Of a stretch of DNA of 64,000 bases, positions 3,305-34,778 are shown in pieces; the first letter of the stretch is position 1; each line of letters begins with the position of its first letter. Source of the DNA: Cyanidioschyzon merolae (taxonomy: Eukaryota); assembly GCA_000091205.1 (NCBI GenBank), contig AP006491.2. One strand, 5' to 3'. The translations under genes were made by a program, and so were the position numbers. A model generated the notes under the pieces. The model saw nothing but the letters and a program-made list of their open reading frames with translations, had not been told where the DNA came from and ran no database searches.

Positions 3305-4006
3305 TTAGAAAAGCAGCTTCTTGCTCTCCTTGCCAGCGGGCCGCTTGCCTTGCATCACATTTTTCACAACACCCATTTCAACAGCAGTTTTTGCCCAATC
3401 GACTGCTAAGTTGTCTGGGCCCATGGCGCGTGCACGTGCCTGTTCCTCACTAAGGCAGGTGAGCACTCCGAAAACAATAGGGACAGCGGTGGTCATCTGC
3501 AGCTGCATGATGGCAGCGCTCGCCTTGTCCGCGATAACGTCGAAGTGGGTTGTCTCTCCCTTGATCAGGCAGCCTAAACAAACGACAGCGTCAACGCGCT
3601 GCGTCTCAATCATGAGCCGCGCCCCAAGCGGTAGTTCAAAAGCACCGGGTACTTCCAACTCCACTATATTTTCCGGGGAGACTTTGCACTCCCGAAGCGT
3701 CCTTTTCGCGCCTTCCAGAAGCGAACCTGTGATCTCCTCGTTCCAGCGCGAGCGAACCAGACCGATGCGGAGGTCGGACCCGTCCAGCGTGTCAGAGAAA
3801 GTGACCCTTTTCGTGGCACTCTGAAGGCCTAGGGCATTGTTGTGCCTTATAGACTCGGTACGGTGAGTGGGTCCTGCTTGGAAGCGCTTGCTACACGCGC
3901 ATCGGTTGCTGTACGCGGTCACCCAGTCGAACTGCGACGTTCTTTGCGAGACCCTACTAGCAAGGTGAGCCCGCCGAGTGATAAACGAAGAACTGAACAC
4001 AAACAT
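3305..4006 (-). CDS. ribH: 6,7-dimethyl-8-ribityllumazine synthase (riboflavin synthase beta subunit) with N-terminal organellar presequence
   Basis: C-terminal 150 aa: LRIGLVRSRWNEEIT, ELEVPGAFELPL, VDAVVCLGCLIKGETTHFDVIADKASAAIMQLQMTTAVPIVFGVLT and EQARARAMG match lumazine synthase. Start placed at internal ATG (MFVFSSSFITRRAHLASR, Phe-rich transit-peptide-like); the ORF in the track extends to 4174. Confidence 0.85.
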   Translation of the reverse strand: MFVFSSSFITRRAHLASRVSQRTSQFDWVTAYSNRCACSKRFQAGPTHRTESIRHNNALGLQSATKRVTFSDTLDGSDLRIGLVRSRWNEEITGSLLEGAKRTLRECKVSPENIVELEVPGAFELPLGARLMIETQRVDAVVCLGCLIKGETTHFDVIADKASAAIMQLQMTTAVPIVFGVLTCLSEEQARARAMGPDNLAVDWAKTAVEMGVVKNVMQGKRPAGKESKKLLF

Positions 4007-5115
4007 TATCCAAGCTCGCCTCTTAACAGTTTCTGCGTAACTAGGGACGCTCTTTTCGGACCACCTCGCTTGTGGACGAGTGCGAGAGCGTTCGGCAGAC
4101 GTCCTCACTGGCGCCGGTGTCGGTCGCTCAGGTGCCAGCTGCGCTGAGCGCCCGATCCAATCAAGCAGGCGCACGGCACAGAAGAAAGGTGACGTTCAGC
4201 AATGCGTCGGCGATTCCAGCACCTCCTCAAACGTGAAAGCGAAGCGCTTGCGCACATAAAAGCATCGATGATGTGTTCCACGTATGCGATAGATGGGCCT
4301 TACGCATACCAAGCGGCGTCAAAGCAAGGATCGTTCGCGTTTACGACTAAACACAGTGGTAAAGTGTCGTAGCCATGAGGCGCAGCTGTCGCCTCCGTGC
4401 GCATTCGTTCCCGCAACGCAACGATGGCGACAGCACACCTACGATAGCAATGCAGGTCTCCATTATCACAGCGCATGGGCTTGTGCAAACTTCACGCCTG
4501 CCCCATGCCGACCTCAGATAGCGCCTGTCTCCTAAGCAGAGCGCTCCACCGAAGCAGCGCACGCTGAACAACACAACAAAGTAGCAGCAACCAGTTCGCG
4601 CCTCAGATACAGTGCCTACCCTACTTTGGCGATATCAACGCAAACGAAGATGCCTGCGCGCGCAAATGCACGGACACACGCACACGGATGCGCCGCAACG
4701 TGTGCCCTCACGCGTGCGCATTGCCGTGCAGCGATGGTGCGTGTCCGATGAGCGCGTGAACGCCGCACGATCCGCGATTCGAATCTACCGGAATGACGTG
4801 CACGCAGCGGTACGCACGCGTGCCGGCTCGATGCGCCTTATTTCTTGGTGATTCGCGAGCGCCCTCGTTCGAGCAGTCGGCACGATGCTCGCCCAGCTGC
4901 ACGCCGATCACTCAAACGAACAGTCAGTGGGGGTTCTGCGCGCGCGCTGCGGCTGCGGCCCCCGAGTGCCATCTCCGAGGCGCAAAGCGCGGCGATCGCT
5001 GCATGCCCGTCCGAGCACCGTGCCGTGTCACGCACATGCGGCGACTGCTGCGCCAACGACATTCAAGAAGCGACTGGAGCAACTGTTCCAGCAGCAGCAG
5101 TAGTTGCAATGCCTA

Positions 5116-5871
5116 TCACTTGTTGCACGCAAAGGTCATATCCGCCTCGACGGCAAGTTCGCCATCGACGTAGCCTCGCCCGCGGCACTTGGCGATGCCA
5201 AAGCGCTTGCGTAGCGCCATCACCTGGCACTCCATCACGAGCACGTCACCCGGACGCACCGGCCGCCGCCAGCGCAGGTTCTCCACCGAGGCAAACAGAA
5301 ACAGCCTCCCAGGCTCGCTGTCTGGACCGCTCAACAGCATAAGGCCGCAGCACTGCGCGAGCGCCTCGAGCTGCAGCACACCAGGCATAATCTTGGCAGA
5401 CGGGAAGTGGCCCTCGAAGAACTGCTCGTTGTACGTGACGTTCTTCACCGCCACGATCCGCTGCTCGGCCGCACACTCCAAAACCTTGTCCACCAGTAGA
5501 AACGGGTAGCGGTGCGGGAGCACGCGCTCAATGGCCTCGGCGTCCAGCACCGCTGCAGGCAGCGCAGAGCGCCGCGACAGCTCCGCTGCGTCCGTGGGCG
5601 TCGACGGCGCCGGCACTGCACTCGTCGCGCTGGGCGCTCCGCCGTTCGCAGCCACCTGCTCGGCGCTGGCGCGTGGCCCGCACCACCGCCGCTGGCGCGG
5701 CTGTGCGCGTACACCGCAGTCAGCCTGGGCAGCGCTCGTCCTCTGGTACGGTCGCAGTAGCAGCACCAGCGGCGGCTGCAGCCTCGCAGTGGCGCCGAGG
5801 CAGACCTCTCGGCAGTTGCGCCTACGAGCGAGCAAGACGCTGTCTGCTCGTCCAGTTGAACAGAGAAACAT
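5116..5871 (-). CDS. fabZ: 3-hydroxyacyl-ACP dehydratase FabZ (type II FAS, organellar) with about 110-aa presequence
   Basis: ERVLPHRYPFLLVDKVLE, VAVKNVTYNEQFFEGHFPSAKIMPGVLQLEALAQ and RPVRPGDVLVMECQV form a hotdog-fold FabZ signature. N-terminus MFLCSTGRADSVLLARRR is transit-peptide-like. Confidence 0.85.
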   Translation of the reverse strand: MFLCSTGRADSVLLARRRNCREVCLGATARLQPPLVLLLRPYQRTSAAQADCGVRAQPRQRRWCGPRASAEQVAANGGAPSATSAVPAPSTPTDAAELSRRSALPAAVLDAEAIERVLPHRYPFLLVDKVLECAAEQRIVAVKNVTYNEQFFEGHFPSAKIMPGVLQLEALAQCCGLMLLSGPDSEPGRLFLFASVENLRWRRPVRPGDVLVMECQVMALRKRFGIAKCRGRGYVDGELAVEADMTFACNK

Positions 5872-6023
5872 GTACGAGGCCTATGTTGGAGCAACACACT
5901 GTATAATCGAGGGTGTTGCGCACAAGCCTAGCGGTGCTCAAATACTGAATACGTGTGCATACCCAAAATCGCAGGCGATAAGTGTCGGTCGATGCGCGTC
6001 ACGCAATACGCGCCATGCGATCT

Positions 6024-6168
6024 GCGCAGTGCGATGTGCGTAGGTCGATACGCATAGTGCGATGTGCGCAGTGCAATGCGTGTAGGTCGATACGCGCAGT
6101 GCGATGCGTGTAGTGCGATGCGTGTAGGTCGATACGCGCAGTGCGATGCGTGTAGTGCGATGCGCTCA
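6024..6168. repeat. Degenerate compound tandem repeat built from cagtgcgatgcgtgt and aggtcgatacgcg motifs
   Basis: The motifs gtgcgatg(c/t)gcgtaggtcgatacgc recur at least 5 times by eye. The 325-aa ORF in the track overlapping it (5999..6976, minus) translates to an Arg/His/Cys-rich low-complexity product. Confidence 0.7.
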
Positions 6169-7098: not shown

Positions 7099-8940
7099 CT
7101 ACAAACGTGGGCGCAGGTCGCTCATGGGCATGCGCTCGCGTTCGTGACGCTTCTCATTCGGTGTCGCGCGCTGCTCGTCATCGCGCACACGTTCTCGCGT
7201 AACCGATGGAGGCGTGGATCGCAGCTCGCCATCACCGTAGTCGACAGCGAACAGCTCCCGCTCCACGAGTGTCGCTCGCCAGGGCATGGGCGCTATGGAC
7301 CACAGGCCAAGCACGCTGCGATCGGCGCGGAGGCCTCGCCCCTGAAGCTCCTCGTGCCGCACAGGCGTCGTGTAACGACCGATCGTAACCAGGAGACCAC
7401 TCCCGTCGGAGAGGCCGTAAACGCCCTGCACCATGGCCTTTCCGTACGTGTGGTCTGGCGCGAAACCCACACTTACGAGCGTAGCTCTGCAATAGTCTCG
7501 AAGAGCGCCCGCAAGGATCTCACTAGCACTCGCAGTTTCATGGTCTATGAGGACGACTAAAGGCAGCTGCTGGGCGACTGCCAGCGCTTGATTCGGTTCC
7601 CGACTCGAGATCGGTATGACGTCGCCATGACTACCTTCAAACAGTGCGACGGGTACGGAACCGCCGAGAAAGAGGCCAGCAAGATCCAGGGCCTCCTCCA
7701 GAGATCCGCCGTGATTCCTCCTCAGGTCCAGCACCAGGCGATCGATCGAATCGACGACGCTGCTCGCATGCGCTACTGATCCGGTCTGGCTAATCCCCAA
7801 AAGATGTGACAAGGCTGCCTCCATCTGAGGCAATGTCGATGCATTGAATTCGTGCACGCGGATGATACCCGTATCCCCGAGACGTTCGTAGTCTACGCTG
7901 TTCTCGAGAGACGATCTCGATGAAATGCGATACTCGCGAACAAGTTCGATCGGTCCGCGACCCCGGATCTGCAGCACGACTTTGCCACCATCAGCTCCCT
8001 GCATAAGCGCCGCGGCTTCAAAGGGTGCAACTCGCCCGCCACGTACATCGACACCGTTGATAGAATCGACGACATCGCCGATCGCGAGGTCGGCCTTGGC
8101 GGCTGGTGTGCCCGCAATCGGAGGGCTCGCAACATACAAGTCACCTTCCGCTACGGGCACTCTTGGGATGACGCCAAGTTCGAGCTGCTCCCGTGAGGCG
8201 CCGGAGTGCGTCGCCCTGCTCACATCGTTATCCGCTGCCCGCAGGAGAAGTCCCAGCCCCGTTGTATCGAAACGCATGAGTTGTGCGAACTTTTCCGGGC
8301 CTAGCATCCGCGTATAACGATCATGCAGCGGCCGAATGAAATACTCCTCGATTCTCTGATGCGCTGTCATGAAATCCGTTGGCGGGAGAGGCTTCAACGC
8401 TGAATCCAGCCAGCTCCGCTGCAAGCGATCACCCTGAATATGGTTCTCCCTAAGAATACCGTATGCTTCGTACACGACGCGCACCGGTGCCGAAACAACT
8501 TTCTCTGGTGGGAGCGCAGAGCTCTCAACAACTCGAGACCAAAACACGAGGGTAACGAAGAGCACACACGCGACGCCTCTCTGGAGATGTCGCCACAGAG
8601 CGAGGTCTGTTCGGCTTTGACTCCAGTTGACTGCGCTGCTCGCGGTCTGCACTGGAGATCGTGCCCCTACGCGACTTTCAGGAGGCGTCCTTCGCTCACA
8701 TAGGCCCAATTGGAAAGCCTTCGCCGTACTTGGGGCGCACTTTTTCCACGAAGCAAACTCCCGTCGCGTAACGCCGCCTAGTGACCGCGGACTCTGGCAA
8801 GGTTTGCTGTGCACGAACCAGCGCGTACTTGTCTTCGTTAGACGAGTGCGCGTGTTGTCTCTCTGCGAACGCAGTCTGACCTTTGTGGTTCCGTCGAGCG
8901 GCCAAACATCGGGAACCGCCGCAAACAGGCCCCCAATCAT
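7099..8940 (-). CDS. ctpA: C-terminal processing peptidase (S41 family; CtpA-like photosystem II D1 processing protease) with bipartite presequence
   Basis: PDZ region GDVVDSINGVDVRG. S41 catalytic region LVVLIDHETASASEILAGALRDY...GKAMVQGVYGLSDGSGLLVTIGRYTTP. N-terminus has a hydrophobic lumen-type signal VACVLFVTLVFWSRVVESSA after a basic presequence. Confidence 0.85.
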   Translation of the reverse strand: MIGGLFAAVPDVWPLDGTTKVRLRSQRDNTRTRLTKTSTRWFVHSKPCQSPRSLGGVTRREFASWKKCAPSTAKAFQLGLCERRTPPESRVGARSPVQTASSAVNWSQSRTDLALWRHLQRGVACVLFVTLVFWSRVVESSALPPEKVVSAPVRVVYEAYGILRENHIQGDRLQRSWLDSALKPLPPTDFMTAHQRIEEYFIRPLHDRYTRMLGPEKFAQLMRFDTTGLGLLLRAADNDVSRATHSGASREQLELGVIPRVPVAEGDLYVASPPIAGTPAAKADLAIGDVVDSINGVDVRGGRVAPFEAAALMQGADGGKVVLQIRGRGPIELVREYRISSRSSLENSVDYERLGDTGIIRVHEFNASTLPQMEAALSHLLGISQTGSVAHASSVVDSIDRLVLDLRRNHGGSLEEALDLAGLFLGGSVPVALFEGSHGDVIPISSREPNQALAVAQQLPLVVLIDHETASASEILAGALRDYCRATLVSVGFAPDHTYGKAMVQGVYGLSDGSGLLVTIGRYTTPVRHEELQGRGLRADRSVLGLWSIAPMPWRATLVERELFAVDYGDGELRSTPPSVTRERVRDDEQRATPNEKRHERERMPMSDLRPRL

Positions 8941-10626: not shown

Positions 10627-11151
10627 ATGCTGCTTTATACCCAACGTGCCCACTTTCTGACGAACAAAGGGTTCCTTTGTGCTAGCACACAGCGCTTGTC
10701 TATGGGGCTGTTGGCGAATAAGAATCGGATTGGTTCAAACAACACCACAAAGACCCAGCTGCACGCACCCGGTCGGGAGAGTCTCCTTCGTAACCTTGGT
10801 TATGTGGCGACCTGGCAGTTTGTTTTGGTCGGGGCAAGTCTCCTGCTTGTGCCGCAACTCTACGCAAAGTGGGCTGGTGGGGCCGCTGCCGGGGAACTCG
10901 GGGCGACGAGGCTCGTCGCAGGAGCGAACTTGACTGCCGCGCTTGTTATGCACAAGCGCACCACTGCGAGCGAGGTTAGCAACGGGTTTGGGGTGCTCGC
11001 GCCTTTCCTCGTCCTGGACGCGTACCAGGTTGTCTCACTTGTTCTCGCACGGGCTACCTTATCTCCGCTGGGATACGTCTTAGGAGGTCTTAAAGTCGCG
11101 GAGGCTGGGGTCGGCATCGCGAACTGGGTTCAGCGTCTCAAGAAAAACTAG
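10627..11151 (+). CDS. Hypothetical Gly/Ala-rich membrane-associated protein, 174 aa
   Basis: ORF in a gene-sized gap preceded by a pyrimidine-rich tract (10221..10300). Hydrophobic stretches WQFVLVGASLLLVP and GFGVLAPFLVL. No family recognised. Confidence 0.25.
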   Translation: MLLYTQRAHFLTNKGFLCASTQRLSMGLLANKNRIGSNNTTKTQLHAPGRESLLRNLGYVATWQFVLVGASLLLVPQLYAKWAGGAAAGELGATRLVAGANLTAALVMHKRTTASEVSNGFGVLAPFLVLDAYQVVSLVLARATLSPLGYVLGGLKVAEAGVGIANWVQRLKKN

Positions 11152-12729
11152 TTGGACAGTATGCCAGTTCGTTTGCGTGCATGTCGCAGATTTCGAATGA
11201 TTTCACGTATTTCAAAGCTAATAGAATTCACTAGAGTAAATGCCGGGAATGCTAGCATTTTCTTCAGTGTTTATACCTGTTCGGTACCGGATCCATCACA
11301 CGGCATGTAGGTCGCTAGAGCCTCTGCCGTGTCAGCGCCACTGACTGGGACGCCTGCGAGGCTGATTTCCATTCGAGGTCGCGCGCCAGTTTTCGCGGAA
11401 ATGCCTTAGCGTTCCCCGGGTGTCTGACATTAGAGGCACTACATAAGGCCCCAGCGGCTTTCACCACTGCATCATCATTGTTTGCTCTGCTCAAGTCGTC
11501 CACCAGCGCGCGAACATGCTTTCATGTTCGTCCTCTGGGGCATGTGGTTTAAGTGCGCCCGCGGATTCAGCGGGATTCGTGCGCACCACAACCAGTGTGT
11601 GAGCGCCGAATCTTCTGGGGCGTTCACGGATGTCCGCGGCAGGCGTCTTTTTCAGGGTCGCCGCCCTATTTGCATGCACGGTACTGTCGTCACGCAGACA
11701 GCGCTCTGCAAAGCAAAGTCATGCTGCAGAGTACAGCGGCCGTCAGACAGTGGCGAACCCCGCGTCCAACAGAGTCAAACGACGAAAAGAACACGATACG
11801 ACGGGTTTCAATCGCGGGGCGCTTCGCTGACTTCCGACGGGTGCTCCACAAGCAACGCCCACAACAGCCAACTCGCGAACGACGCGAGGTCTCTGGGTCC
11901 GGGCACAAGATGCTCGAGATGCGCGGACGCTCTGCTCGGTGGATCGGCGCTCGTGACCATGGAATTTTCCAAACTTTCACTTGTTTCTATTCCAGCTGTG
12001 ATCGCGCTCGACAGAGCGTCCATCGGGAGCGAAAATGCGTGGTTGCATTCAGAGCATTCTGCTACGTTTCAAACAAGCACCTATTTGGACGCTCTCAAGC
12101 CTCCAGCGTCAAAGGAAACCGCGTATCCAGCCCTGATTCGAGTTCGTCCCGAGCACATCACAGTATCCCGTTTTAACATCGAACAACCTCGAGTAACACA
12201 ACCACAAATCCATAAACACCTGTTTCGTACAGACTTTTGGAACGTTTCGAGCACCACGTGTGCATGGACCGGCACAGGAGCACGACTTGCCGATGGCGGT
12301 TCGTACGGTTTTTTTTTTTCCGATGACGAAACGTTTACATTGACCATGTATCGCAGAATTTGGGATGGATAATGGCTTTGGGGAAAGCGTCCATGATGAA
12401 GGACCTACCTTCAAGTTCCATGACCCAGACTCGATTCGAACGATGCATCGGCAGCCTGCGTATGCGCATGGAGGCGGTTCGATCTGAGCGCGCTGCAAGT
12501 CCACCCCCATGGGTGTCCCATCCGAAAAATCTTCTTCGTGGAGACGCATCGTCGTTACGCTCTGCGACCTGACAGCTTACTTTTGGAGACACATTTCATA
12601 ACTTTAAGCTGCGGATCTTTAGAAAAACGTCACGGGCTTTCTTGACAGAACGTATCTTGTCCTGCAACGTGCGCTGGTCGTGCCGGCTAGAGAAGGTCGG
12701 CGCTACTGCACAGCATACGATCAGATCGG

Positions 12730-14169
12730 TTGTTCGCTTGCGCTCCGTTCCTTCGCGTGCACGCTATGGAAACTGGTCCAACACATATGGGCAGAGGCCG
12801 TGCTCGCTGTGCTCCGGGCAACGGCGGAGCGCATGCAGTTCTGTTCGTTCCGGCTAGACACCTGTTGCGCGAGGAAAGAAAAGCACCAACGTCACCAAGA
12901 GTGGCGTGCTCGCGGTACCGCGACAGGAAGCTGCTTCAAATACGCTCCCTGCGTATGGAACAATCAAGCCAGCGACTGCCGAAAGGAAGGCTAGAGAACT
13001 TCTTCGTGCTACTCGGGAAACAGTGCGTGCGGGAGATCCGTGGCACCGTCGAAGCCGTTGCAGCTGCCACGACGCGGCAGGCGAAGACTCCGTCCGCGTC
13101 GCAGGCGCGTCTAGCGGAGCTCGCGATCTCCGACGAGCTCATCGCCAAACGCGAGAGCCTCCGGGAAAGTGCAACGCATTACCTGAAAGCGGCACCATGG
13201 CTTTCGAGAATGACCTATACTCTTTTGTGCCGCTTGATCGAAATGCTCTTTCGCGACAGACCCATCGAACGTTTTTGGTTTCTGGAAATGGTTGCTCGCG
13301 TTCCCTACTTCTCTTTTCTATCAGTGTTGCATTTGTATGAATCGTTGGATCTTGCTCATCTCACGGAGCTTCGGCGCGCTCATTTCATAGAAGAGTGGAA
13401 CGAAATGCACCATTTACTGATTATGCAAGCGCTTGGTGGCGACGGCCGGTGGCTGGACCGCTTCCTCGCATATCACGTGTCTCTCGTGTACTACTGGGCA
13501 CTGGTTCTCCTCTACATGATCGCACCAGCGGTCGCGTACAACTTCAGTGAGCTCTTAGAAAAGCATGCCTACGACACGTACGCGGTGTTCATCGAGCAAA
13601 ATGAGACGCTGCTGCGCACGCTGCCGGCACCTTCGGTTGCCCGAGCGTACTACGAAAGCGGTGAGCGCTTCCGTTTCCGAGCGGACACCATCAATGCAGA
13701 GACGCACGCGTGCGAGGGCCCCCCGGTTGCGACGCTGTTCGACGCTTTCGTGAACATTCGCGATGATGAGGGCGAGCACATCAAAATGATGGAATTCTGC
13801 CAGACGGAAATCATCAGCACTGGACAAGCTTCGGCGACAGGAGACCAAGCCGATCTGTGTGGATCGAGAGCGGCGGAGGCACCAGCACTCGCGGGTCTCC
13901 TGGCGACTTTCTCGACATGCATTCGTTCATCGGAAGATCGCGATCGCTGGAATCGCTGGCAAGCAAGCGCTGAGGAATGGAAACGGAAGCACAGCAGAAC
14001 GCCAGTGCCATTTCTGAAACCATCTGGAGCCGCAAGTGCGCAGCTGACACGCAACTGGAAAGTGCACGCTAACGAGGGGTACGCCCCTATCCCCGAAGCG
14101 ACGGACCGAGGTGGACATGCTCTAGAGAACGGTCATGTGGGGCCAGGAGCGTCGTCTCCGACAGCGTAG
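12730..14169 (+). CDS. PTOX: Plastid terminal oxidase (PTOX/IMMUTANS, di-iron carboxylate quinol oxidase), paralog 1
   Basis: RFWFLEMVARVPYFSFLSVLHLYES, HFIEEWNEMHHLLIM, NFSELLEKHAYDTY and DDEGEHIKMM carry all six Fe-ligating E/H positions of the AOX/PTOX family. Matches PTOX rather than mitochondrial AOX (LET/EEAENERMHL pattern absent). Alternative start at 12955 (MEQSS). Confidence 0.85.
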   Translation: MFACAPFLRVHAMETGPTHMGRGRARCAPGNGGAHAVLFVPARHLLREERKAPTSPRVACSRYRDRKLLQIRSLRMEQSSQRLPKGRLENFFVLLGKQCVREIRGTVEAVAAATTRQAKTPSASQARLAELAISDELIAKRESLRESATHYLKAAPWLSRMTYTLLCRLIEMLFRDRPIERFWFLEMVARVPYFSFLSVLHLYESLDLAHLTELRRAHFIEEWNEMHHLLIMQALGGDGRWLDRFLAYHVSLVYYWALVLLYMIAPAVAYNFSELLEKHAYDTYAVFIEQNETLLRTLPAPSVARAYYESGERFRFRADTINAETHACEGPPVATLFDAFVNIRDDEGEHIKMMEFCQTEIISTGQASATGDQADLCGSRAAEAPALAGLLATFSTCIRSSEDRDRWNRWQASAEEWKRKHSRTPVPFLKPSGAASAQLTRNWKVHANEGYAPIPEATDRGGHALENGHVGPGASSPTA

Positions 14170-20291: not shown

Positions 20292-21575
20292 CAACATGCT
20301 ATCGTTCATCTCTTTGAAGATCGTTTATTGTGACAGAACGAAGTCTCACGCACTGCACTGATGGTGGACGGCGCTCGCCACGCAGTGCAACGGCGAACGA
20401 CACGGACACGCCGTTCAAGAGTCGAGTTCCACACTGGCCCGACACTCGGTCAGGTTTTCGTGCAGCGTTCACGCGAACTTTGAAAAGCGATATCCGATAA
20501 CGTTGGTAGCGCTCTGAAGTCGCGTGTATTTTGAAGATCGGCGCGTTTGTACCTCGGTGCGCCAAAACGTCGCAGAAAAGCATGCGCTTCTTCGACGCCG
20601 CTGGCGCCTCAGCTGTGCACAACTCTGTCCACGCGTAAGGACGCGAATGAGCGGGCATAAAGAGTGCAGTACAAGCGATCGGGCCGTACTGTCGTAATAC
20701 ATTTGGCCTTGGTTTCGCATGCGTTTCGGGTACGAGAACGTGCCGGTGGTCAGCAACCACTGGATGATGTAGCGTACGCGATCATTGCTCTTTTCCAGGA
20801 TGATCGTGAAGCTTTACGAATATTGCTGGTAAGGATTCGACGCGTGCGCGTTGTTGCGACCATATCCCGGGTACTGGTATGTTGCGTGTGTCGCTCAGGG
20901 ACGGGTTCAGGTGCATGGAAACTTTGCGCATGGTGGAATGTCTTCGCGGATGGGTTGCTTCTAGAGCCAGCAGTGCGATGCGTCCAGTCCGTCCCGAACC
21001 ATACCCCCGTCATCCTTGGTAAAGAAACGTTCCATTTGGGGCGATGTCAGGTCTTTGGGCGCTAATGCGACTGACCGGCGTATGCGACCAGACGGTGGTT
21101 GGCGCTCATGCGTATCGCGCTGGAGCTCGTGTGCGGTACCCGCAGTCTCCAGTTCCCTGCGCTCCATATCGAGATGAAGTGCTTCGCAGCTTCGAGCATG
21201 GTGCAAGAGGTTCGTTTCTCCAATTCAGCCAGGGCCCGAGGTGCTCGTGCTTATTTTGCGCTGAGTTTTCGTCACCACAAGGGTTGCCCTCTGCCCGAGC
21301 TCGACACTGAAACGACACCGGCATGCCTGAGGCGGCTCGCGAGCGCTGCATGGATCAAGCGAGGCGCCGGCCCAGTGCCGTCAAGGTTTACTGCCCTGGC
21401 GGCCGGTGTATGCAGCGTACGCTTGCCGCATATTGCGTGTTGCACGAGTTGCGGTGAAGTCACCGGGAGCCGTCCTTATCGGGTGCGGCTGTGGGTGCTA
21501 CTCGAGCGCACCTGCCAGGGCAAAAACGCTGCCTGCGTGCCCACTTGACGGGAGGCACGGACGGCGACGCTGGCG

Positions 21576-21648
21576 TACGTCGAGCGAGGATCGAACTCGC
21601 GACCTCCTGCGTGTAAGGCAGGCGAAATCACCACTATTCCATCGACGC
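21576..21648 (-). tRNA. tRNA-Val (anticodon UAC), 73 nt, no encoded CCA
   Basis: Minus-strand read GCGTCGA-TG-GAAT-AGTGGTGA-TTTC-G-CCTGC-CTTACAC-GCAGG-AGGTC-GCGAG-TTCGATC-CTCGC-TCGACGT-A. 7-bp acceptor stem (one G-U), D-loop AGTGGTGA, 5-bp anticodon stem, anticodon TAC with U33/A37, T-loop TTCGATC. T-run (plus-strand AAAAA at 21522..21526) downstream on the coding strand. Confidence 0.75.
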
Positions 21649-21902: not shown

Positions 21903-22367
21903 ATGGCGTTCATCAGCACACCTTTTGCAAAGGTTTCTGCAAAGCGTGCAAGCGTTTCGGCTAACCGACGCGCACTGTGCATGCGGTCCGACGCGGACCC
22001 AGTGGTCTCGCGCCGAGCGCTGCTTTCGGGAGCGCTGGCTGTCGCCGTTGCGGCTGCGATGGCGAGGGCGCGCCCAGCGAACGCCCGCATCGACTATGAG
22101 GGCGTCGGTTATCTCGGCGGCAGCGATAAAGTTGATGTGAACAATGCGAACGTGCGGGCATACCGCAGGTTCCCCGGTCTCTATCCGACGGCGGCCAAGA
22201 AGATCGTCCAGGGCGGTCCGTACAACTCCCCCGAGGATATCCTGAAGAACCCAGAGCTCACGGAACGGGACAAGGAAGTGATCAAGCAGTACATGGACAG
22301 GTTTGTGGCACTGCCGCCAGCACCAGAATATTTCACAGACCGAGTGAATAACGGTATTTACAAGTAA
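21903..22367 (+). CDS. psbU: Photosystem II 12-kDa extrinsic protein PsbU precursor (nuclear-encoded, transit peptide plus twin-arginine lumenal signal)
   Basis: VDVNNANVRAYRRFPGLYPTAAKKIVQGGPYNSPEDILKNPELTERDKEVIKQYMDRF matches PsbU (helix-hairpin-helix-like) closely. N-terminus MAFISTPFAKVSAKRASVSANRRALCMRS, then SRRALLSGALAVAVAAAMARARPANA (RR motif, hydrophobic core, AxA). Confidence 0.9.
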   Translation: MAFISTPFAKVSAKRASVSANRRALCMRSDADPVVSRRALLSGALAVAVAAAMARARPANARIDYEGVGYLGGSDKVDVNNANVRAYRRFPGLYPTAAKKIVQGGPYNSPEDILKNPELTERDKEVIKQYMDRFVALPPAPEYFTDRVNNGIYK

Positions 22368-23646: not shown

Positions 23647-24663
23647 TTATCCGTTGCGGGTCGTCGTAACGACAACAGGCACGACAATGGCAATGATGAG
23701 TATAATCAGGAGGATAATAATACACCACATGAGTTTGTGCGAACAGCGCTGCAGTCTTCGCGCGCGTTGCAGGTTCTTGACCCCTTGTTTGACCGACTTC
23801 CGTGTGCCTTGAACATTGGTCTCGATTTGATCGATAAGCTCCCCCTGAGACTCAACCAGGACGCTCAGATCTAAGAACATCTGATGGAGCTCTCGAATGC
23901 TCTCCTCAAGTGAGGCAATTTCACGATTGCGCATCTCCAGGTCGGCGATTTCGTCGCTGAGCGTTCCCCGCTCCAGATCGAGTTGCTCTTGCTGGAGCAT
24001 TGGACGCAAGGTTTCCGGCTTCTCGGCAAAATCGCGAACCTGCGCATCGTCGAGACCGGGGCGCATGTTCCGCAGCTTTTCAAACATGGCTCCCTGCATC
24101 TGTTCCTTCTGCTGAGCCTGGAGGCGCTCGTACTCCTCTGTCGCCCGCATGAACTGGCGAATGAGTCGCTGATGTTGGTTCACTCGTATTCGCGCTTCCC
24201 CACTTCTGTCTGGGTGTTGCTCGCAAAAGCGCCGGTTGTCGTCGGCCATGGCCTTGAGGTCGATCTTTACTTTTTGGGCAACCTCTTGTGCGCGTGTCTG
24301 GAGCGTGGTGATATCCGCCTGAATAAGAGCCACTTTCCGTTTGTCGGTCGTTCCTGCCCTTTCAGAGTAGAGCGGCGTGAGCTGCGCAAGGATATTGCGA
24401 TAGAACGCGATTTGGTTGCTCAGCTCATTGACCTGACCAAAAAAGTCGACCAGGAACGAGTCGGAGGCTCCCTCGGCCTCGGAGGCACCGTTGCCAGTGC
24501 CCGCCCCGGACTCCAGGTCTGCCCTATCCTTCGCGCTAGGTGCCTGTGGCTCCAGTGACTCCTGATCAGGAGCGTCATTTTGCTCACTAGAAGATGGAAC
24601 AGCGAGCTGGTTTGGCTGTTTTATTTCACCGAGTCTATTTTGCATCTGTCGTTCACGACACAC
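23647..24663 (-). CDS. Syntaxin (Qa-SNARE) with C-terminal transmembrane anchor
   Basis: SNARE motif EIASLEESIRELHQMFLDLSVLVESQGELIDQIETNVQGTRKSVKQGVKNLQRA with the central Q. C-terminal TM LMWCIIILLIILIIAIVVPVVV. N-terminal Habc-like helices. Start may be at the second Met (24645). Confidence 0.85.
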   Translation of the reverse strand: MCRERQMQNRLGEIKQPNQLAVPSSSEQNDAPDQESLEPQAPSAKDRADLESGAGTGNGASEAEGASDSFLVDFFGQVNELSNQIAFYRNILAQLTPLYSERAGTTDKRKVALIQADITTLQTRAQEVAQKVKIDLKAMADDNRRFCEQHPDRSGEARIRVNQHQRLIRQFMRATEEYERLQAQQKEQMQGAMFEKLRNMRPGLDDAQVRDFAEKPETLRPMLQQEQLDLERGTLSDEIADLEMRNREIASLEESIRELHQMFLDLSVLVESQGELIDQIETNVQGTRKSVKQGVKNLQRARRLQRCSHKLMWCIIILLIILIIAIVVPVVVTTTRNG

Positions 24664-25399: not shown

Positions 25400-26155
25400 C
25401 TACGCCAATCGCAACAGTATAGTCAGGAGCGACAGCAAAGCCGCAGCCGTGGCCACTACAAGCACATCGCGGCGTTTCCTTCGACGAATATTCGCGACGA
25501 GACGCCCGACTTGCGGCAAGGAATCCGCCATCGCTGTCATCCGGTGGAACATCAACGCAAACGTCTGCCGCTGCCGCACGAGCTCATCCCGAAGAGCCAT
25601 ACTCTGCCCAAGACTAGCATCCACAGCCTGGTGTGCTCCATTAACATGCGTCGACTCGGACTCGAGGTTCCGGAGACCGCGTTCCAGGTCCGGCGCTGCT
25701 CCAGGCAGGCTACCAGCACCGCCACCAGCTTTTGTTTGTGAACGCTGCCGCTCTGGCGACGACACTCGTCGCGGACCCACCAGGTCGAAGTACTCTCTGA
25801 CTTGTCGAAGACTGGCTCGCAGACGGCGGTACTCGATCCGCGACTCTGCAAGCACCTCCTGGTGCCGCTGCAGAACCAGTAGCAAGGCAGGTTTTCCCTG
25901 CTCATCTTGTGTAAAGGTTGTCATCTGCCGGTTTACCTCTTCTAGTTGCCGCAAGCAACCCTGTAGGCGCGTCTCCAGCGCTTCCACCCGCTCAAGTTCG
26001 CGAGCGACCTGGTCGTTCCTTCGCGACGCATCGACCACGCCCAAGGCGGACCCAGAGAGCGCAGCGCATGCCTTGGCAAAGTCGCTGAGACTACGCTCCA
26101 CCTCACCCTCGAGGCGCCGAGCTTCCACTCGCAACTGCTCCCAGCTGACGCTCAT
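25400..26155 (-). CDS. Golgi SNAP receptor complex member 1 (GOS28/Gos1, Qb-SNARE)
   Basis: N-terminus SWEQLRVEARRLEGEVERSLSDFAKA and C-terminus RLVANIRRRKRRDVLVVATAAALLSLLTILL parallel GOS28 (YWEDLRKQARQLENELDLKLVSF ... INLRKRRDSLILGGVIGICTILLLL). Confidence 0.8.
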   Translation of the reverse strand: MSVSWEQLRVEARRLEGEVERSLSDFAKACAALSGSALGVVDASRRNDQVARELERVEALETRLQGCLRQLEEVNRQMTTFTQDEQGKPALLLVLQRHQEVLAESRIEYRRLRASLRQVREYFDLVGPRRVSSPERQRSQTKAGGGAGSLPGAAPDLERGLRNLESESTHVNGAHQAVDASLGQSMALRDELVRQRQTFALMFHRMTAMADSLPQVGRLVANIRRRKRRDVLVVATAAALLSLLTILLRLA

Positions 26156-26293: not shown

Positions 26294-26330
26294 AGCACAC
26301 ACGCACACACCCGCACGCACACACACACAG
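26294..26330. repeat. Imperfect (CA)n / CACG microsatellite
   Basis: acacacgcacacacccgcacgcacacacacacag. Confidence 0.8.
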
Positions 26331-26766: not shown

Positions 26767-29613
26767 CTAGATGGGGACGGGCTCCGCTTTGAGCACGGGT
26801 CGAATCACCAGCCGTTCGTTCTCGATATCGGCGACAACGGTTTGTCCATCCTTGATACTGCCGCTGAGAATGCCCTTGGCCAGCGGTGTCTCCAGCTCGC
26901 GCTGCACAGCACGACGCAGCGGGCGAGCGCCGTACACTGGGTCGTAGCCGACTTGGGCTAAAAAGTCCAGGGCGGCTTCGCTGGCCTCCAGGTGGATGCG
27001 GCGCTCACTGAGGCGCTTGTTCAGCTCCTCGACCTGCATGCGTACGATTTGGTGCAACTCGGTACGCATCAATGCATGGAAGATGATGATCTCATCGATT
27101 CGATTCAGAAACTCGGGACGGAACTGCGCCCGCACCGCATCCATCACCATCCGGCGCATGGATTCGTACATGGCGCCCGTTTCATCGGAGGTCATTGAGG
27201 AGAGGATGTGCTGAGAGCCCACGTTACTCGTCATGATGACGATACAGTTGCTGAAGTTCACCGTACGACCCTGGGAATCGGTTAAACGTCCATCATCGAG
27301 CACCTGAAGCAAAACGTTGAACACATCCGGGTGCGCTTTCTCAATCTCGTCCAGCAGTACGACCGAGTAGGGACGTCTGCGCACGGCCTCGGTCAACTGG
27401 CCTGCTTCCTCGTAACCGACATAACCAGGAGGCGCTCCGATCAGGCGCGACACAGAGAACTTTTCCATGTATTCGCTCATGTCGATGCGAATGAGGGCAT
27501 CCTCGCTATCGAAAAGTCGCTCCGCAAGCGATTTGGCCAGCTCAGTCTTACCGACGCCGGTAGGCCCCAGAAACATGAAGGATGCAATGGGTCGGCGCGG
27601 ATCCGCGAGACCGGCTCGGGAGCGTTGAATCGCCTCCGAAACCGCTCGAACAGCGTCGCGTTGACCGACTACGCGTTTCGACAAGTCACGCTCCAGGCTC
27701 ATGAGTTTTTCGCTCTCACTCTCCGTAAGCTTTTGTACGGGAATCTTGGTCCACGCGGCAACCGTCTGCGCAATATCGATTTCCGTGACCTGATCTCGGA
27801 GGAGCGGCATGTGACTCCCGTTGCCCGCCATCGGATCTAGAGACTCCTCGGCCTGTTTGAGCTCCTTCCGCAGTTTGGGCAGGCGATCGAACTTGAGCTC
27901 CGCAGCGCGATTCAAATCGTACACTTGTTCCGCACGGTCGATTTCGAACTCGACTTGCTCTATTTGACTTTTGAGATCCTGGATGCGCTCTAACATGCCC
28001 TTCTCCCGTTTCCATTGTTCTTCAAGTTGCCGCTGGCGCTCGCGCAATTCCTCGATCTGTTTGTCTAACTGAGCCCGACGTTCGACGGTCTTTGTATCCG
28101 TGTCCGATTTCAGGGAGACGCGCTCCATTTCCAGTTGCAAAATGCGACGATCAAGCTCATCTAAACTCTGCGGCTTGCTGGTGATCTCCATCTTCAGGCG
28201 CGCAGCCGACTCGTCCACCAGGTCTATAGCCTTATCGGGAAGGAAGCGGTCTGTGATGTAGCGATTGGAGAGAACTGCGGCCGCAACGAGCGCGCTGTCT
28301 GTAATACGAACACCGTGGTGGACTTCGTAGCGCTCCTTCAAACCACGCAGGATGCTTATGGTGTCCTCCACAGATGGCTGGTCTACGAGAACCTGTTGGA
28401 ATCGTCTCTCGAGAGCCGCGTCCTTTTCAATGTACTTGCGGTACTCATCCAACGTGGTTGCACCGATGCAGCGAAGTTCGCCGCGCGCAAGCATCGGTTT
28501 CAGCAGATTGCCCGCGTCCATTGCACCGTCGGTCTTGCCGGCGCCAACCACGGTATGGATTTCGTCGATGAAGAGAATCATCTTGCCCTGGGCCTCGGAG
28601 ACCTCCTTCAGGACTGCCTTGAGGCGCTCCTCGAACTCGCCCCGGTACTTGGCGCCAGCGATTAATGCGCCCATGTCCAGCGCGATGACCGTCCGATTTC
28701 GAAGCGACTCGGGCACATCGCCATTCACGATACGCTGAGCGAGACCCTCGACAATGGCGGTCTTCCCGACACCGGGTTCACCGATGAGCACTGGGTTGTT
28801 CTTCGTTCGACGCGAGAGGATCTGCATCGTGCGTCTGATTTCCTCGTCTCGACCGATGACTGGATCCAGTTTGCCCTCCCGCGCGGCCTTGGTAAGATCT
28901 CGTCCGTATTTTTCAAGCGCCTCATAAGTGTTTTCCGGGGTCTGTGTGGTGACGCGCTGACCACCACGGATCGACCGAATGGCCTCTTCCAGTTTTGCTT
29001 CGGGTACATTCAGCTCATTCAGAACGCCACGCTGGAGCCGCGAGTCCCTCCAGGCCGCTAGAAGCAAGTGCTCGATGGAGATAAAGTCGTCGCTGTACTC
29101 GCGCTGAATGCGTGCCGCAGACTCGAGCGTCTCCCGCAGCGAGCGTCCCATGACCTGCGAGCCAAGCTCGCCCTGTACCTTCGGCTGCCTGTTACAAAAG
29201 CTGCGCACGCGTTCACGAACTTGAGGCAAACGTGCCCCAGCTTTGTCTAGAATACGAGTGGCGAGTTCATCGTCGAGTAGCGAGAGCAGCAGGAACTCGG
29301 ACTCGATGACTTGCTGCTGGTAGTCACGTGCGAGCGTTGCAAGACGTGCAAGCGCTGCCCATGCCTTTTCCGTATACCGCTCAGCGTTGAGCAAGTTTCC
29401 ATCGGGCCCACCGCCACTACCTCCTGCAACCATGCGCGGCCAGCGTGCAACTTGCACCCGTTTGGGCGGCTTTGCAACTCTCCAGCTGCGCTGCACGAGG
29501 GCACGAGGCCTCCCGCTGTGTAGCGAACGGCCGGCCTCGAGCCACGACGAGGACGCAGCACCCAACGGACGCAACGTATGTAGTTGCTGTGAGGTTACCG
29601 ACCAAACAAACAT
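26767..29613 (-). CDS. CLPB: ClpB/Hsp104-family AAA+ disaggregase (organellar ClpB) with about 80-aa presequence
   Basis: 948 aa. NBD1 Walker [19 protein letters not shown], Walker [15 protein letters not shown], long coiled-coil M-domain, NBD2 [16 protein letters not shown] and [30 protein letters not shown]-terminus [18 protein letters not shown]. Confidence 0.95.
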
Positions 29614-31505
29614 TTTGTTTCCTTTCTCGTTGTTCTATGTACACTTTCAGCGAGCAGCAACACCAATGCCGATACTCCGGGAGATTGGCTATACTCGGCG
29701 AGGCTATGCGATCGATGCGCTTCACCATCGCGTAGGCGCGTCGATTCGGGAAGACTCGCGCAGCTGCGCGGCATTTCCAGGCGCCGAAAGCAGGAGCGGC
29801 ACGCTGCGCGGATTGCCGCCTGCGCGACACGCGTATCCAAATGAGCGTGCATGATACGGCTGTGCGCTTTGTAGACATTATTCTAGTTTTATTCTATTTC
29901 TTCTTTCCGACACGCACAGCCGCGCGGTGCCATGCGCAGGTTCCACGTGCTTACGAGTTCATACGTCGTTTTCGGATGCTCGATCGCGGTTTTGGTGTGG
30001 TTCTTTCGACGCTTTGCCGCTGGAATTCCTTATATCACAGAAAATATCATGAATCGTGGTGTCATCCAACAGGAGTTCGTAAAATAACTGATATCACACT
30101 CCAGAGCATTCATGTAAGCATCTAGTCTGCTTCGCGCCTTACGTGTGCGGCACGCTCGCACATCCTATATTCTTCAAAATTTCGCTCTTTCTGTTTCCAG
30201 GTAACTCATGGGCGATACAGTGCGCACCGCTGGATTAACGACGGAGAGGACTCGACGTTGTCCCCTGACGACTTGTTTATGAGCTCGTCTAGGAATTTCA
30301 CTGAACTTGTGAGGTCAAATATTCGATTGCCTTCAAAACAGAGATCCTCTTCTCCTTATGGCCATCACGAAAACGGATCCGACAGCATCATTATGATAAC
30401 TCACACGAGATACGCTCCGAGACGTTCCCGTCGCTCCCATTAGCATGGAAACAGGGCCCTGCTCTCGAATTGGAGTCATCCCAGGGATCGCTTCAAGTGT
30501 CGAGCGCGTCATCGTGTTGCACGAACAGAGCAGGGGCGGAACCAAAGTTCTCGACTTGTTCTCTATCCTGGATTTGCCTTCCGCGGCTGTTTCATCCTCA
30601 GGTACATCAGGTTCAGCAAATTTCCCATTGAATGAAGCAATCTGCTCTTGCGCATGCGGTGGCCAGGGTTCTCGCATGGGGCATCGCTCAGAACAAACCC
30701 GTGATCGTTGCGGACGGACCGGGTGCGGAAACAGAGCAGATCTTCGACGACAGCTTTCTGTACCCGTCAAGGGCATATACCCAGCGATGAAGTATGCATT
30801 CAGGCGTCACAGAACGCTGCCCGGAAAAAGGAGATAATAGGGACGTACGGGAAACTTTCGACGACACCGAGGTTTCAGCGCTGTGCAGGGCGCCCAGAAG
30901 CGGCGGACACTCAAGGTGGCATTGACAAACGAAGTGCAGATCACGACTTCTGATGGAGGTTGAATTACGCGGAAAGCAGCCGAAGCGTTTCCCTCTCGGG
31001 ACTTGAACCCTGCCGTCAACATATAACTCGACTGCTCGCAACGGACCCGGAGCGCACCGAGAGACCAGCGCATGGAAAGCCAGGCGATGGGAGTGAGACG
31101 AAGAGAAAGCCGTCGCATGAAAAGCCCACAAATACTTATATGAATAACAATTGGAAGAGACCCAGAAAATTAAGTGCACGCTCGAGCTAGACGGCCCGTT
31201 CTTCTCTCTTCGAAGCGGTCTGTACGAGGCCAGTCGACGCGAGCTGCTCCCGCGACGCTCCAGATCTAGAACAAATCTGTATAAACTACCACCGGCCCAT
31301 GGCATGCGCGCACTGCAGGCCTCCGCAGCCCAGTACCGGGTCGTAGGCAGTACCAGCGTTCTCGCAGACGTCGGCGTTACGTGGGCGTTCTTGTTGTTGT
31401 CGTTTCCACGGGTACCGACTCAAGCGGCTTTGCGCTCCACATTGTGCTTCCAAGACGACTTGTCTTGAAGGTGCGAAGGTTGAAGGACTCTGGTTTCTGC
31501 AAAAC

Positions 31506-34500
31506 ATGTGGGTAGGAGGTGCGTGGCCGACACCCCTCGATAGCGTAACGCGGGTGTTACCCGCGTGCTGGCGCCTGCACGCTGCCGCAAAGTGGAAACC
31601 TTCCTTTCACAGACAGGTGACGGTGCCATCGAGGGGTTACGCACCGCAAATCAGAGAGCTGAGTTCAAGTAGAACTGAGGCATTGCGGCGTAGCATACCA
31701 CTGCGAGCGCAGCTTGAGCCCGAGAGCAACGAGCGAGGCTCGAAGCCAACTGCAGCGAAACGAGCACCTCGCACGAGTCGTCGAAAGGTGACTGGGCTCA
31801 AGGCTGCACGTTCGAGCAAAACCGCAGTTGCGAAAGCGACCGCCCAGAGCGATGGAGTGCAGCACTCCACCGAGGCGGCTGAACGCTCGCCGTTGGACAA
31901 CGAGGCCGCAGTTGGAAACCGCAAGGCGCTAGTCATCGTGGAGTCTCCGGCAAAGGCGAGAACAATCCAAAAATTTCTACCGCCGAATTATATTGTCGAG
32001 TCATGTATGGGTCACGTACGAGATTTGCCTCAGACTGCACGCCAAGTACCTGCAGAGCTAAAGGAGCATGCATGGGCGCGCCTCGGCGTTGACGTAGAGG
32101 ACTCTTTCCGTCCGTTGTATGTCGTTCCGGAGAACCGCCGTGAAACCGTAGAGCGTTTGCGAGAACAGCTGACACAGGCGAATGAACTCGTGCTCGCAAC
32201 TGACGAGGACCGAGAGGGTGAGGCCATCTCGTGGCATCTGGTGGAGCTCCTACAACCTCAGGTGCCCGTTCGGCGCGCAGTTTTCCATGAAATTACCGAA
32301 GACGCTATTCAAGAAGCCTTTCAGAGCTTTCGTGACATTGACATGAACCTGGTACACGCGCAGGAAACCCGAAGAATTCTGGATCGCCTGGCCGGTTACA
32401 CCCTTTCACCACTGCTGTGGAAGAAGATCGCGCCGGGGTTGTCGGCTGGCCGGGTCCAGTCTGTCGCACTTGCCATGATTGTGGAGCGCGAACTCGAGCG
32501 ACTGCGCTTTCGCTCAGCCCAGTACTGGAGCATCCTGGCCCAGCTTCGTATCGAGCACGTGCAGGGCACCGAGTCACCGATCCTGGAAGCAGAGCTTGTT
32601 CGCATCGGGGAAGCACGCCTCGCTATCGGCAAAGATTTCGATGGACGTACGGGCAAACTCAGAGAGGACGTGCAATCTGAGAACACCAATGGCCGTGTGA
32701 AAGTGATCTGGCTCGATGAACCAACTGCGAATAGACTTGCGGCGGAGGCCCAGTCTGCACCGCCGGGCTCTTTTCGGATCGTCTCGATAGAGCGACGTCA
32801 GGTAACGCGTACACCGCCTCTGGCGTTCACGACTTCAACCCTGCAGCAGGAGGCCTCTCGACGCCTCCGCGTCACCACGCTTCAGGTGATGCGCGCTGCC
32901 CAGTCTCTCTACGAAGGTGGCTACATAACGTACATGCGAACAGACTCTCCGCAGTTGTCCATGCAGGCCACAGAGGCTGCCCGACGAGCAGCAGCAGAGC
33001 GCTTTGGCGCCGAGCAGGCAGTCCCCGCTCAAGCGGCGCCACGCAAAACGTCCAAGAAGCCGAAGGGTGCCCAGGAAGCGCACGAGGCCATTCGGCCGGC
33101 CGGGCGCGCCTTCACGCCCCCGGAAGCCCTGAGCCTGGAACCTCTCGAGAAGCGCCTCTACGAACTCATCTACTATCGTACGCTGGCTAGTGAGATGCAG
33201 CCAGCGAAACTCCGCCAAACAACATTGACCATCGAAGGTCCAAAGGAGATGCTGTTCCGGGCGAGCGGCACCGAAGTAGAATTTCCTGGTTGGCTCTTGG
33301 CCTACGAAGCACTTCGCCGCGTACACGAGCATGTCTCCGAATCTGGGAGCGCTGCTTCCGTTAACGAGGACTCTGCACTCGATGAGCAGGGATTACTTCC
33401 GAGAGACGTGCACCTTTCGGAGGGCGACAGCCTCACCGCGGTCGCTGTGGACCCCGTCCTGCACGAGACCAAAGCACCGGCACGCTACACCGAAGCGTCG
33501 CTGGTCAAGGAGTTGGAGACGAACGGCGTGGGGCGACCCAGCACCTACGTCAGCATTATCGAAACGCTCCTGGAGCGTTCGTATGTGATCCGGAAGGGTT
33601 CGTCCGGTTCGGCATCGAGTCTGGTGCCAACCTTAACCGCGTTTGTGGTCGTGCGCTTCCTCCAACATCATTTCCCCAACTTTGTAGACGTTCGTTTCAC
33701 CTCCGAAATGGAGGCTGCACTTGACCTCATCGCCAGAGGTGAAGCCGACCGCATCGCCTACCTGCAGCAGTACTACTGTGGCGAGTCGGGGCTAGCAGCT
33801 GCGGTGCGGGCGAAAAGCGACACAATCGATGTCAACGAGGCACGACGAGTCTACCTCCCTGCGCTCGAGGGCGACGCAGCGGCTCCAGAGGTCACGGGTG
33901 AAGCGAAGACCACCGCTGCCGATGGTGAACGAAAGGAGTGGCCGAAACCGCTGGTTTATGTGGGCCCGTATGGACCTTACGTTGTCTACGGCGAGAAGGT
34001 TTCGTTGCCGCGGGAGATATCGGCCGAGCAGGTCACCCTGGACACGCTGCGTCGTCTGGCGGAACAGCGCAAGTGCGCTGCAGAGCTGGGCGTGGATCCA
34101 CAGACCGGGATGCACGTCTACTTACGAACTGGACCCTATGGCCCATACGTTCAGCTGGGCGAGGACCCCGGCTCGATGGCAAGTCACACTTCCACGGAAA
34201 AATCAGCAGCACCCAGTACCGATGACGCAGCGCCTACCGACAAACAGCTCGATTCCGCGAGAGAAGCGTCGCCAGGTACCAGTGCCCGTTCGACGAGACG
34301 CGCTCGAGGAACGGGTACGAGTGCCCGAGCTCCCCATGAAAAGCCGAAGCGGGTTTCGTTGCCGTCGTGGCTGGACCCAGCACGAGTTGATCTCGAACTT
34401 GCGCTGCGCCTGCTCTCCTTGCCGCGGATTGTTGGCGAGCACCCGGCAACTGGCGAAATCATTCGCGCAGGCTACGGTCGTCTGGGTCCGTATCTTCTCT

Positions 34501-34778
34501 ATCAGGACAAGTTTACGAGCCTGAGCAAGTACGAACCTGGAGGCGCCTCTGACCCGCTGTTCATTGATCTGGAAACGGCAGTTCATATTCTGGACACTGC
34601 GAAAACGTCCAAGTCTAGATCCAGGTCGACGAAATCGAAAACCAGCGATGCCGCTGAAGAAGCGAATGGGGCTTCATCGGAGTCTGCGGACGCAGCACCT
34701 ACGGAAAACGACCAGCTCAAGGCACCGCCAAGACGCGGAACAGCGCCTCGAACTCGCTCCCGCAAAACTTCCGGTTAG
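31506..34778 (+). CDS. topA: DNA topoisomerase I, bacterial type IA (TopA), organellar; C-terminal GPYGPY-type repeats and Lys/Arg/Ser-rich tail
   Basis: Toprim region [55 protein letters not shown], type-IA active-site region [14 protein letters not shown]. C-terminal repeats [51 protein letters not shown] typical of cyanobacterial/actinobacterial TopA C-terminal domains lacking zinc ribbons. About 140-aa N-terminal presequence; true start uncertain. Confidence 0.9.
   Translation: [1090 protein letters not shown]

Follow-up and report, generated by a model that had tools for sequence, protein, structure and literature searches.

Gene content of the interval

The subject of this analysis is a window of 64,000 nucleotides (contig AP006491.2 of assembly GCA_000091205.1) from the 810,151-bp chromosome 9 of Cyanidioschyzon merolae 10D, a red alga, and within it the interval 3305-34778, in which genes for plastid-type proteins lie close together. 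The interval contains 12 protein-coding genes, all of them intron-less, along with a single transfer RNA (tRNA) gene. Eight of the 12 proteins are of the plastid type, i.e. ribH, fabZ, a protease of the S41 family (CtpA-like), two plastid terminal oxidases (PTOX), psbU, clpB and topA, and we consider here both the presequences of these proteins and the reasons for the proximity of their genes. The features, with their locus tags, protein accessions and family matches, are as follows:

3305-4006, minus strand: ribH, 6,7-dimethyl-8-ribityllumazine synthase (CMI238C, BAM80107); Pfam DMRL_synthase at 1.6e-48 over residues 79-213, TIGR00114 passed
5116-5871, minus strand: fabZ, 3-hydroxyacyl-ACP (acyl carrier protein) dehydratase precursor (CMI240C, BAM80108); Pfam FabA/FabZ, NCBIfam FabZ cut-offs passed
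7099-8940, minus strand: S41 C-terminal processing protease, CtpA-like (CMI241C, BAM80109); Pfam Peptidase_S41 and PDZ_6
10627-11151, plus strand: hypothetical protein CMI242C (BAM80110), outside the eight; no Pfam or NCBIfam match
12766-14169, plus strand: PTOX1, plastid terminal oxidase (CMI243C, BAM80111); Pfam AOX, identical to the deposited protein when read from the ATG at 12766
16477-17769, plus strand: PTOX2, plastid terminal oxidase (CMI244C, BAM80112); Pfam AOX, cyanophage ptoX matches
17914-18915, minus strand: hypothetical protein CMI245C (BAM80113), not of the plastid type; no family match
21575-21648, minus strand: tRNA-Val (anticodon tac), called by ARAGORN
21903-22367, plus strand: psbU, photosystem II 12 kDa extrinsic protein (CMI248C, BAM80114); Pfam PsbU at residues 63-153, NCBIfam PsbU passed
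23647-24645, minus strand: syntaxin (CMI249C), non-plastid; Pfam Syntaxin and SNARE
25400-26155, minus strand: Golgi SNARE, GS28-like (CMI250C), non-plastid; Pfam V-SNARE_C
26767-29613, minus strand: clpB chaperone (CMI251C, BAM80117); TIGR03346 passed over residues 80-937
31506-34778, plus strand: topA, bacterial type IA DNA topoisomerase (CMI252C, BAM80118); Pfam Topo IA, TIGR01051 passed

A preliminary description, made from the letters of the window and a list of its open reading frames (ORFs), had counted eight cyanobacterial-type genes among about 13; the proportion is instead eight of the 12 annotated protein genes. Their gene content as then described is upheld by the Pfam matches, and ribH, fabZ, psbU, clpB and topA additionally pass the NCBIfam equivalog cut-offs, whereas the name ctpA holds at the family level only.

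All 12 protein ORFs of the interval are exactly identical to C. merolae 10D proteins (BAM80107-BAM80118, CMI238C-CMI252C) in consecutive accession order. Across the entire window an exact-sequence look-up recovered 21 ORFs as proteins within the range BAM80106-BAM80127, with locus tags running from CMI237C to CMI255C and beyond; the exceptions are BAM80125, for which there was no match, and BAM80128, which is a shorter start variant of a window ORF. The sequence of the interval is identical to that underlying the chromosome 9 annotation, and the sole discrepancy concerns the start of PTOX1, for which the preliminary description had given a TTG-initiated MFACAPF in place of the deposited METGPTH. 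As the uninterrupted ORFs equal the deposited proteins, the genes of the interval lack introns, in keeping with the intron-poor structure noted earlier. The GC (guanine plus cytosine) content is 53-62% per 2 kb throughout the window. The host had been proposed to be a primary-plastid red alga of the Cyanidiales or Porphyridium kind, and the exact protein identity to C. merolae 10D, a member of the Cyanidiales, bears out the first of these. Publications already cover the locus, the genes and how they are annotated, as well as two of the localisations and the N-terminal motif discussed below, and this is an ordinary, fully annotated region of a model organism.

N-terminal presequences and the phenylalanine motif

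Five of the six N-termini singled out in the preliminary description were recovered exactly, namely MFVFSSSF (ribH), MFLCSTG (fabZ), MTGFIS (PTOX2), MAFISTPF (psbU) and MFVW (clpB), whereas MFACAPF was not found in any of the six frames of the window. The accompanying claim, that Phe stands within the first 2-4 residues, is thus true of five of the eight plastid-type proteins: the S41 protease begins MIGGLFAAVP, with its Phe at residue 6; topA begins MWVGGAWP, with Trp at residue 2; and the annotated PTOX1 has no Phe before residue 27. Among the 21 verified genes of the window, Phe at residues 2-4 is nonetheless confined to the plastid-type set (5/8 vs 0/13 other genes; Fisher one-sided p = 0.0028), and the difference persists when any aromatic residue is admitted (6/8 vs 2/13, p = 0.011).

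The family domains of the eight proteins start only at residues 63-175, and each protein therefore has an N-terminal extension relative to its bacterial homologs, e.g. of 78 residues in ribH, 79 in clpB, about 110 in fabZ and about 140 in topA. The first 50 residues are basic in every case, with 7-12 Lys and Arg residues against 1-3 Asp and Glu residues, and the presequences are rich in hydroxylated residues. On the Kyte-Doolittle scale none of the eight N-termini displays a hydrophobic core of the signal-peptide kind: the hydrophobicity of the first 20 residues peaks at no more than 1.56, as against 2.8 in diatom PsbU orthologs. The absence of a hydrophobic signal peptide for the endoplasmic reticulum (ER), asserted earlier, is accordingly confirmed.

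Other red-algal PsbU precursors begin MAFIS, MMAFIS, MVAFVI, MHAFVAS, MAFISGP, MAFIGSS or MAFVSGP, whereas in stramenopile orthologs a signal peptide precedes (A/G)FV(A/T)P, which in diatoms reads AFVAP; the diatom orthologs, unlike the N-termini of the window, show MKIAILAALLSAVSAFVAP. In Cyanidiococcus, both FabZ and ClpB retain an N-terminal MF, with the remainder of the FabZ presequence having diverged.

A plastid targeting motif based on Phe has been published for rhodophytes and glaucophytes (PMC7038456, PMC2222254), and the literature links this aromatic motif to recognition by an outer-envelope pore of the Omp85/Toc75 type; as of the cited 2007 paper, Phe-dependent import in red algae was without experimental demonstration. 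The presequences described here resemble the motif as set out in the literature (Steiner 2005; Wunder 2007; Patron and Waller 2007; Knopp 2020) in the early Phe of ribH, fabZ, PTOX2, psbU and clpB, in the Trp at residue 2 of topA, in their basic, hydroxylated composition without a signal peptide and in the MAF(I/V) starts shared with other red-algal PsbU proteins. They differ from it in the S41 protease and in PTOX1 as annotated. The attribution of the motif to rhodophytes and glaucophytes thus agrees both with these publications and with the red-algal PsbU starts. On the strength of their sequences, the N-termini would be red-algal F-type transit peptides without an ER signal peptide, a reading that agrees with the literature and amounts to textbook biology.

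The PTOX pair and the start of PTOX1

The two PTOX genes are adjacent and co-oriented, and their products are 49% identical over 293 residues. PTOX2, the sole AOX-family protein used as a tblastn query, retrieved 101 cyanophage genes annotated as ptoX at 42-44% identity, and the match to the Pfam AOX family is partial. The pair appears to be of the PTOX type, and the cyanophage ptoX matches fit the source annotation as plastid terminal oxidases.

The annotated PTOX1 starts with the ATG at 12766 (METGPTH). Twelve codons (36 bases) upstream, at 12730, a TTG stands in frame, followed by codons that read TTG-TTC-GCT-TGC-GCT-CCG-TTC, i.e. L-F-A-C-A-P-F, and no in-frame ATG is present further upstream of this TTG. 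MFACAPF as the N-terminus of PTOX1 was therefore rejected as an artefact of reading TTG as a start under the bacterial ORF rule. PTOX1-orthologous ORFs in relatives begin MFSPLID and MAFVAGC. Two metagenome contigs that are 99.4% identical to the region overall are fully identical at the 5' segment of PTOX1 and hence uninformative on the start, and the 5' DNA aligns unreliably, at 62% identity, with that of a Cyanidiococcus-like contig; an alignment of the protein from the extended ORF is suggestive at most. It is possible that the 5' region of PTOX1 records a lost F-type N-terminus, that it harbors a non-AUG (UUG) start, or that it contains nothing of note.

Localisation and affinities of the plastid-type proteins

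Localisation has been published for two of the eight: FabZ (CMI240C) was shown experimentally to reside in the plastid (PMC4928187), and topA (CMI252C), of cyanobacterial origin, was localised to the plastid as a fusion with green fluorescent protein (PMC3914683). For ribH, the S41 protease, both PTOX proteins and clpB, plastid targeting is predicted from the presequence together with homology.

The assignment of PsbU is secure, its scores being 101.8 against a cut-off of 24.5 for Pfam PF06514 and 95.9 against 85 for NCBIfam NF002708. Its presequence consists of MAFISTPF..., followed by SRRALL, a hydrophobic stretch and ANA, and would be bipartite, with a putative twin-arginine lumen signal lying behind a stromal part. 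The S41 protease, too, probably carries a second, thylakoid-lumen signal behind its transit peptide. This protein falls below all of the CtpA, CtpB and CtpC cut-offs (NF045588, 142.7 vs 625; TIGR00225, 148.1 vs 218.6), and ctpA, the name of the D1 C-terminal processing protease, is best taken here as a family-level label for a protease with S41 and PDZ domains. The length of the protein is 613 residues, and its PDZ domain begins only at residue 274; gene callers applied to relatives give proteins of 430-531 residues.

ClpB scores 1340 against the TIGR03346 cut-off of 1232. After the red algae, the matches listed share 66-68% identity over 91% of the protein (the presequence being excluded), and the best of them, at 67-68%, are all cyanobacterial. 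Nearly all of the named ones are cyanobacterial, every named bacterial match belonging to cyanobacteria or close kin, an affinity that reflects the ranking of the top 120 matches and not a phylogeny. The clpB and topA genes are transcribed divergently from a common intergenic region of 1.9 kb (29614-31505), and the pair is kept in both relatives examined. The top matches of fabZ are from red-lineage algae. The gene has a paralog on the same chromosome (BAM80082) that is 98% identical inclusive of the presequence, and in Cyanidiococcus a copy of fabZ adjoins a PPIP5K-like gene without ribH. This suggests that a segment with fabZ and the PPIP5K-like gene has been duplicated, with recent gene conversion in C. 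merolae.

Gene order in relatives

In Cyanidiococcus yangmingshanensis the order importin, topA, clpB, GS28, syntaxin, psbU, CMI245-like, PTOX is kept. A more divergent cyanidiophycean (ENA ERZ1300892), whose identities to C. merolae are 80% for ClpB, 63% for PsbU and 62% for FabZ, distributes the genes over two contigs: NODE_37 encodes, in order, PPIP5K, ribH, fabZ, a gene without assignment, S41, PTOX, PTOX, several further unassigned genes, psbU, syntaxin and GS28, and NODE_287 encodes importin, two unassigned genes, topA and clpB, followed by unrelated genes. The run of eight genes is thus two blocks, joined or split by one rearrangement. The run resembles the tandem paralog pairs and synteny blocks of Cyanidiaceae genomes, with the PTOX pair also present in the Cyanidiococcus-like and the more divergent relatives; the difference lies in one breakpoint, between GS28 and clpB, which sets the divergent relative apart from C. 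merolae and Cyanidiococcus. No Galdieria orthologs occurred among the matches listed. Non-plastid genes, such as those for the PPIP5K-like protein, syntaxin, GS28 and importin, hold their positions as faithfully as the plastid genes do, and the conservation therefore reflects general synteny.

Density of plastid-type genes

The preliminary description had set the density of the run against a typical genome-wide fraction of 10-15%. The literature searched yielded no usable number for the size of the C. merolae plastid proteome, and we simulated a genome, which we take to hold about 4,775 genes, with baseline plastid fractions ranging from 10% to 25%. For a fixed window of 12 genes, the binomial probability of at least eight plastid-type genes is 3e-6 to 7e-5 at a baseline of 10-15%. 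The run was, however, picked post hoc from a scan of many windows, and the chance that any such window exists somewhere in the genome is 0.009-0.15 at the same baseline, rising to as much as 0.65 at 20%. When the PTOX pair is counted once, these values become 0.06-0.48 and up to 0.97, respectively. The enrichment is nominally strong, but it is not compelling on the scale of the genome, especially once the PTOX pair is collapsed.

Expression across the run

Expression was assessed in a microarray time course under a 12:12 light/dark cycle (PMC6606799, data set S1; seven points, one replicate), with random sets of eight drawn from 58 chromosome-1 genes as the background. Averaged over all pairs of the eight genes, the correlation is -0.002, lower than the mean for the random sets (0.089 ± 0.147), 68% of which score as high or higher; co-expression of the run, which had been suggested as a check, was thus not found. 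The peak times of the genes are spread over 0, 8, 12 and 16 h: psbU has its maximum in the day and PTOX1 at 16 h (r = -0.73), the maximum of clpB falls at 12 h, and ribH, fabZ, the S41 protease and topA hardly change, varying by no more than 1.7-fold. The divergently transcribed clpB and topA have uncorrelated light/dark profiles (r = -0.03). The correlations between psbU and topA (r = 0.89) and between ribH and fabZ (r = 0.76) involve nearly flat genes and have little meaning.

The strongest local signal is shared by CMI242C and PTOX1 (r = 0.91), which are induced at night by 153-fold (CMI242C, with its peak at 16 h) and 77-fold (PTOX1), with a weaker correlation between PTOX1 and PTOX2 (r = 0.67); both PTOX genes are listed elsewhere as induced in S/G2-M phase (PMC2646357). 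CMI242C is a protein of 174 residues with a basic N-terminus free of acidic residues and a Tyr at residue 4, and its gene is co-oriented with PTOX1 downstream of it. The divergent relative has no gene call at the equivalent place.

Other features of the window

Between CMI242C and PTOX1 lies an ORF of 282 codons (11524-12372, plus strand) with an MFVLW start, which has no Pfam match and is absent from the protein collection; in a relative, no gene comparable to it was called, and we take it to be spurious, probably a chance ORF in GC-rich DNA. The tRNA-Val gene lies about 250 bp upstream of psbU and probably explains why either CMI246 or CMI247 is missing from the series of locus tags. At 52108-52656, in intergenic DNA upstream of the NDUFA6 gene, a 61-bp unit is repeated in tandem almost perfectly (9.0 copies, 97% matches). 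Smaller tandem repeats are found at 6006-6165, just upstream of fabZ (42 bp, 3.8 copies), at 587-748 (63 bp, 2.6 copies) and at 43132-43183 (13 bp, 4 copies). Pfam had no matches for the ORFs nearest the window's left end.

Origin of the cluster

We consider it very probable that this is an ordinary annotated segment of chromosome 9, that its plastid-type proteins are imported by way of F-type presequences, and that their clustering is a matter of chance and does not represent a co-regulated unit. Under this proposal, the eight bacterial-type proteins would be products of cytosolic translation that enter the primary plastid via their N-terminal transit peptides, most of which bear the aromatic (Phe) motif at the extreme N-terminus. 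The local density would stem from the tandem duplication that gave rise to PTOX1 and PTOX2, from ordinary synteny blocks in which plastid genes stand among non-plastid ones, and from a rearrangement joining the ribH-to-GS28 block to the clpB-topA-importin block. Of the two interpretations floated in the preliminary description, a chance cluster is the better reading in light of the expression profiles, the split synteny and the genome-wide statistics, and the co-regulated neighbourhood is not supported by the same three lines of evidence.

Several points nevertheless weigh against this proposal. PTOX1 as annotated is without an N-terminal Phe. At an assumed baseline of 10% the genome-wide probability is about 0.01, so that chance is unproven. 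The six-gene part from ribH to psbU is kept in a relative with 62-63% identity in PsbU and FabZ, which is compatible with selective maintenance while not being evidence for it. The expression test comprises a single replicate of one seven-point course and 58 background genes from chromosome 1, and the probe for fabZ might also pick up the 98%-identical paralog.

The principal competitor of a chance cluster is a plastid neighbourhood maintained by selection, in which a chromatin domain or a regulatory region common to the genes would coordinate the expression of plastid-targeted proteins. The nominal binomial probability for eight of 12, the order ribH-fabZ-S41-PTOX-PTOX-...-psbU kept in the divergent cyanidiophycean, the night co-induction of CMI242C and PTOX1, the correlation within the PTOX pair and the S/G2-M induction of both PTOX genes all speak for it. 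Yet the eight genes show no mean correlation, psbU and PTOX1 peak at opposite phases, four of the genes hardly vary, and the clpB-topA block lies on another contig in the divergent relative, where the non-plastid neighbours are no less conserved in position. The functions concerned (riboflavin, fatty acids, proteolysis, chlororespiration, photosystem II, chaperone and DNA topology) are furthermore unrelated, and we regard a selected neighbourhood as very unlikely. A composite form, in which the ribH-to-psbU part is kept by selection as a nuclear domain of plastid genes, CMI242C and PTOX1 form a night-induced (S/M-phase) pair, and PTOX1 either lost its F-type start or uses UUG, strikes us as very improbable as well.

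That the run might be a relic of a bulk transfer of contiguous endosymbiont (cyanobacterial or plastid) DNA to the nucleus is prompted by the bacterial type of all eight genes, with clpB and topA (PMC3914683) being specifically cyanobacterial and PsbU and PTOX of the cyanobacterial lineage. Against this, two cyanobacterial clpB loci were found to have no topA, psbU, ptox, fabZ, ribH or ctp within 10 kb, and the arrangement therefore does not mirror a donor operon; bulk transfer was rejected for clpB on account of these neighbourhoods. Host genes (syntaxin, GS28 and the two hypotheticals) are interspersed, every plastid-type gene comes with a presequence and an orientation of its own, in the divergent relative the two blocks lie apart, and the top matches of fabZ come from red-lineage algae, leaving a common transfer exceedingly improbable. 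More improbable still, to the point of being negligible, is an origin from an alga with a secondary plastid, the N-termini being parts of bipartite signal-plus-transit peptides. No support for such an origin was found, and this alternative, which the preliminary description had named as one that would overturn its proposal, was rejected by identity: each ORF tested is an exact C. merolae 10D protein, and the N-termini have no hydrophobic core, with Phe at residues 2-4 of the primary translation product.

Comparison with eukaryotic gene clusters

The finding illustrates that a reading made without tools can correctly infer the lineage of the host from the N-termini of transit peptides and from gene content; otherwise it offers little beyond quality control. 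A co-regulated plastid neighbourhood, if true, would be an unusual instance, for a eukaryote, of organelle-targeted genes arranged in an operon-like way. When set beside the functional gene clusters of eukaryotes, such as the metabolic clusters of plants and operon-like neighbourhoods, the run of C. merolae differs in having neither a common pathway nor co-expression, in the unrelated genes interspersed within it and in not being conserved as a unit; what it has in common with them is the high local density of genes whose products share a cellular destination.

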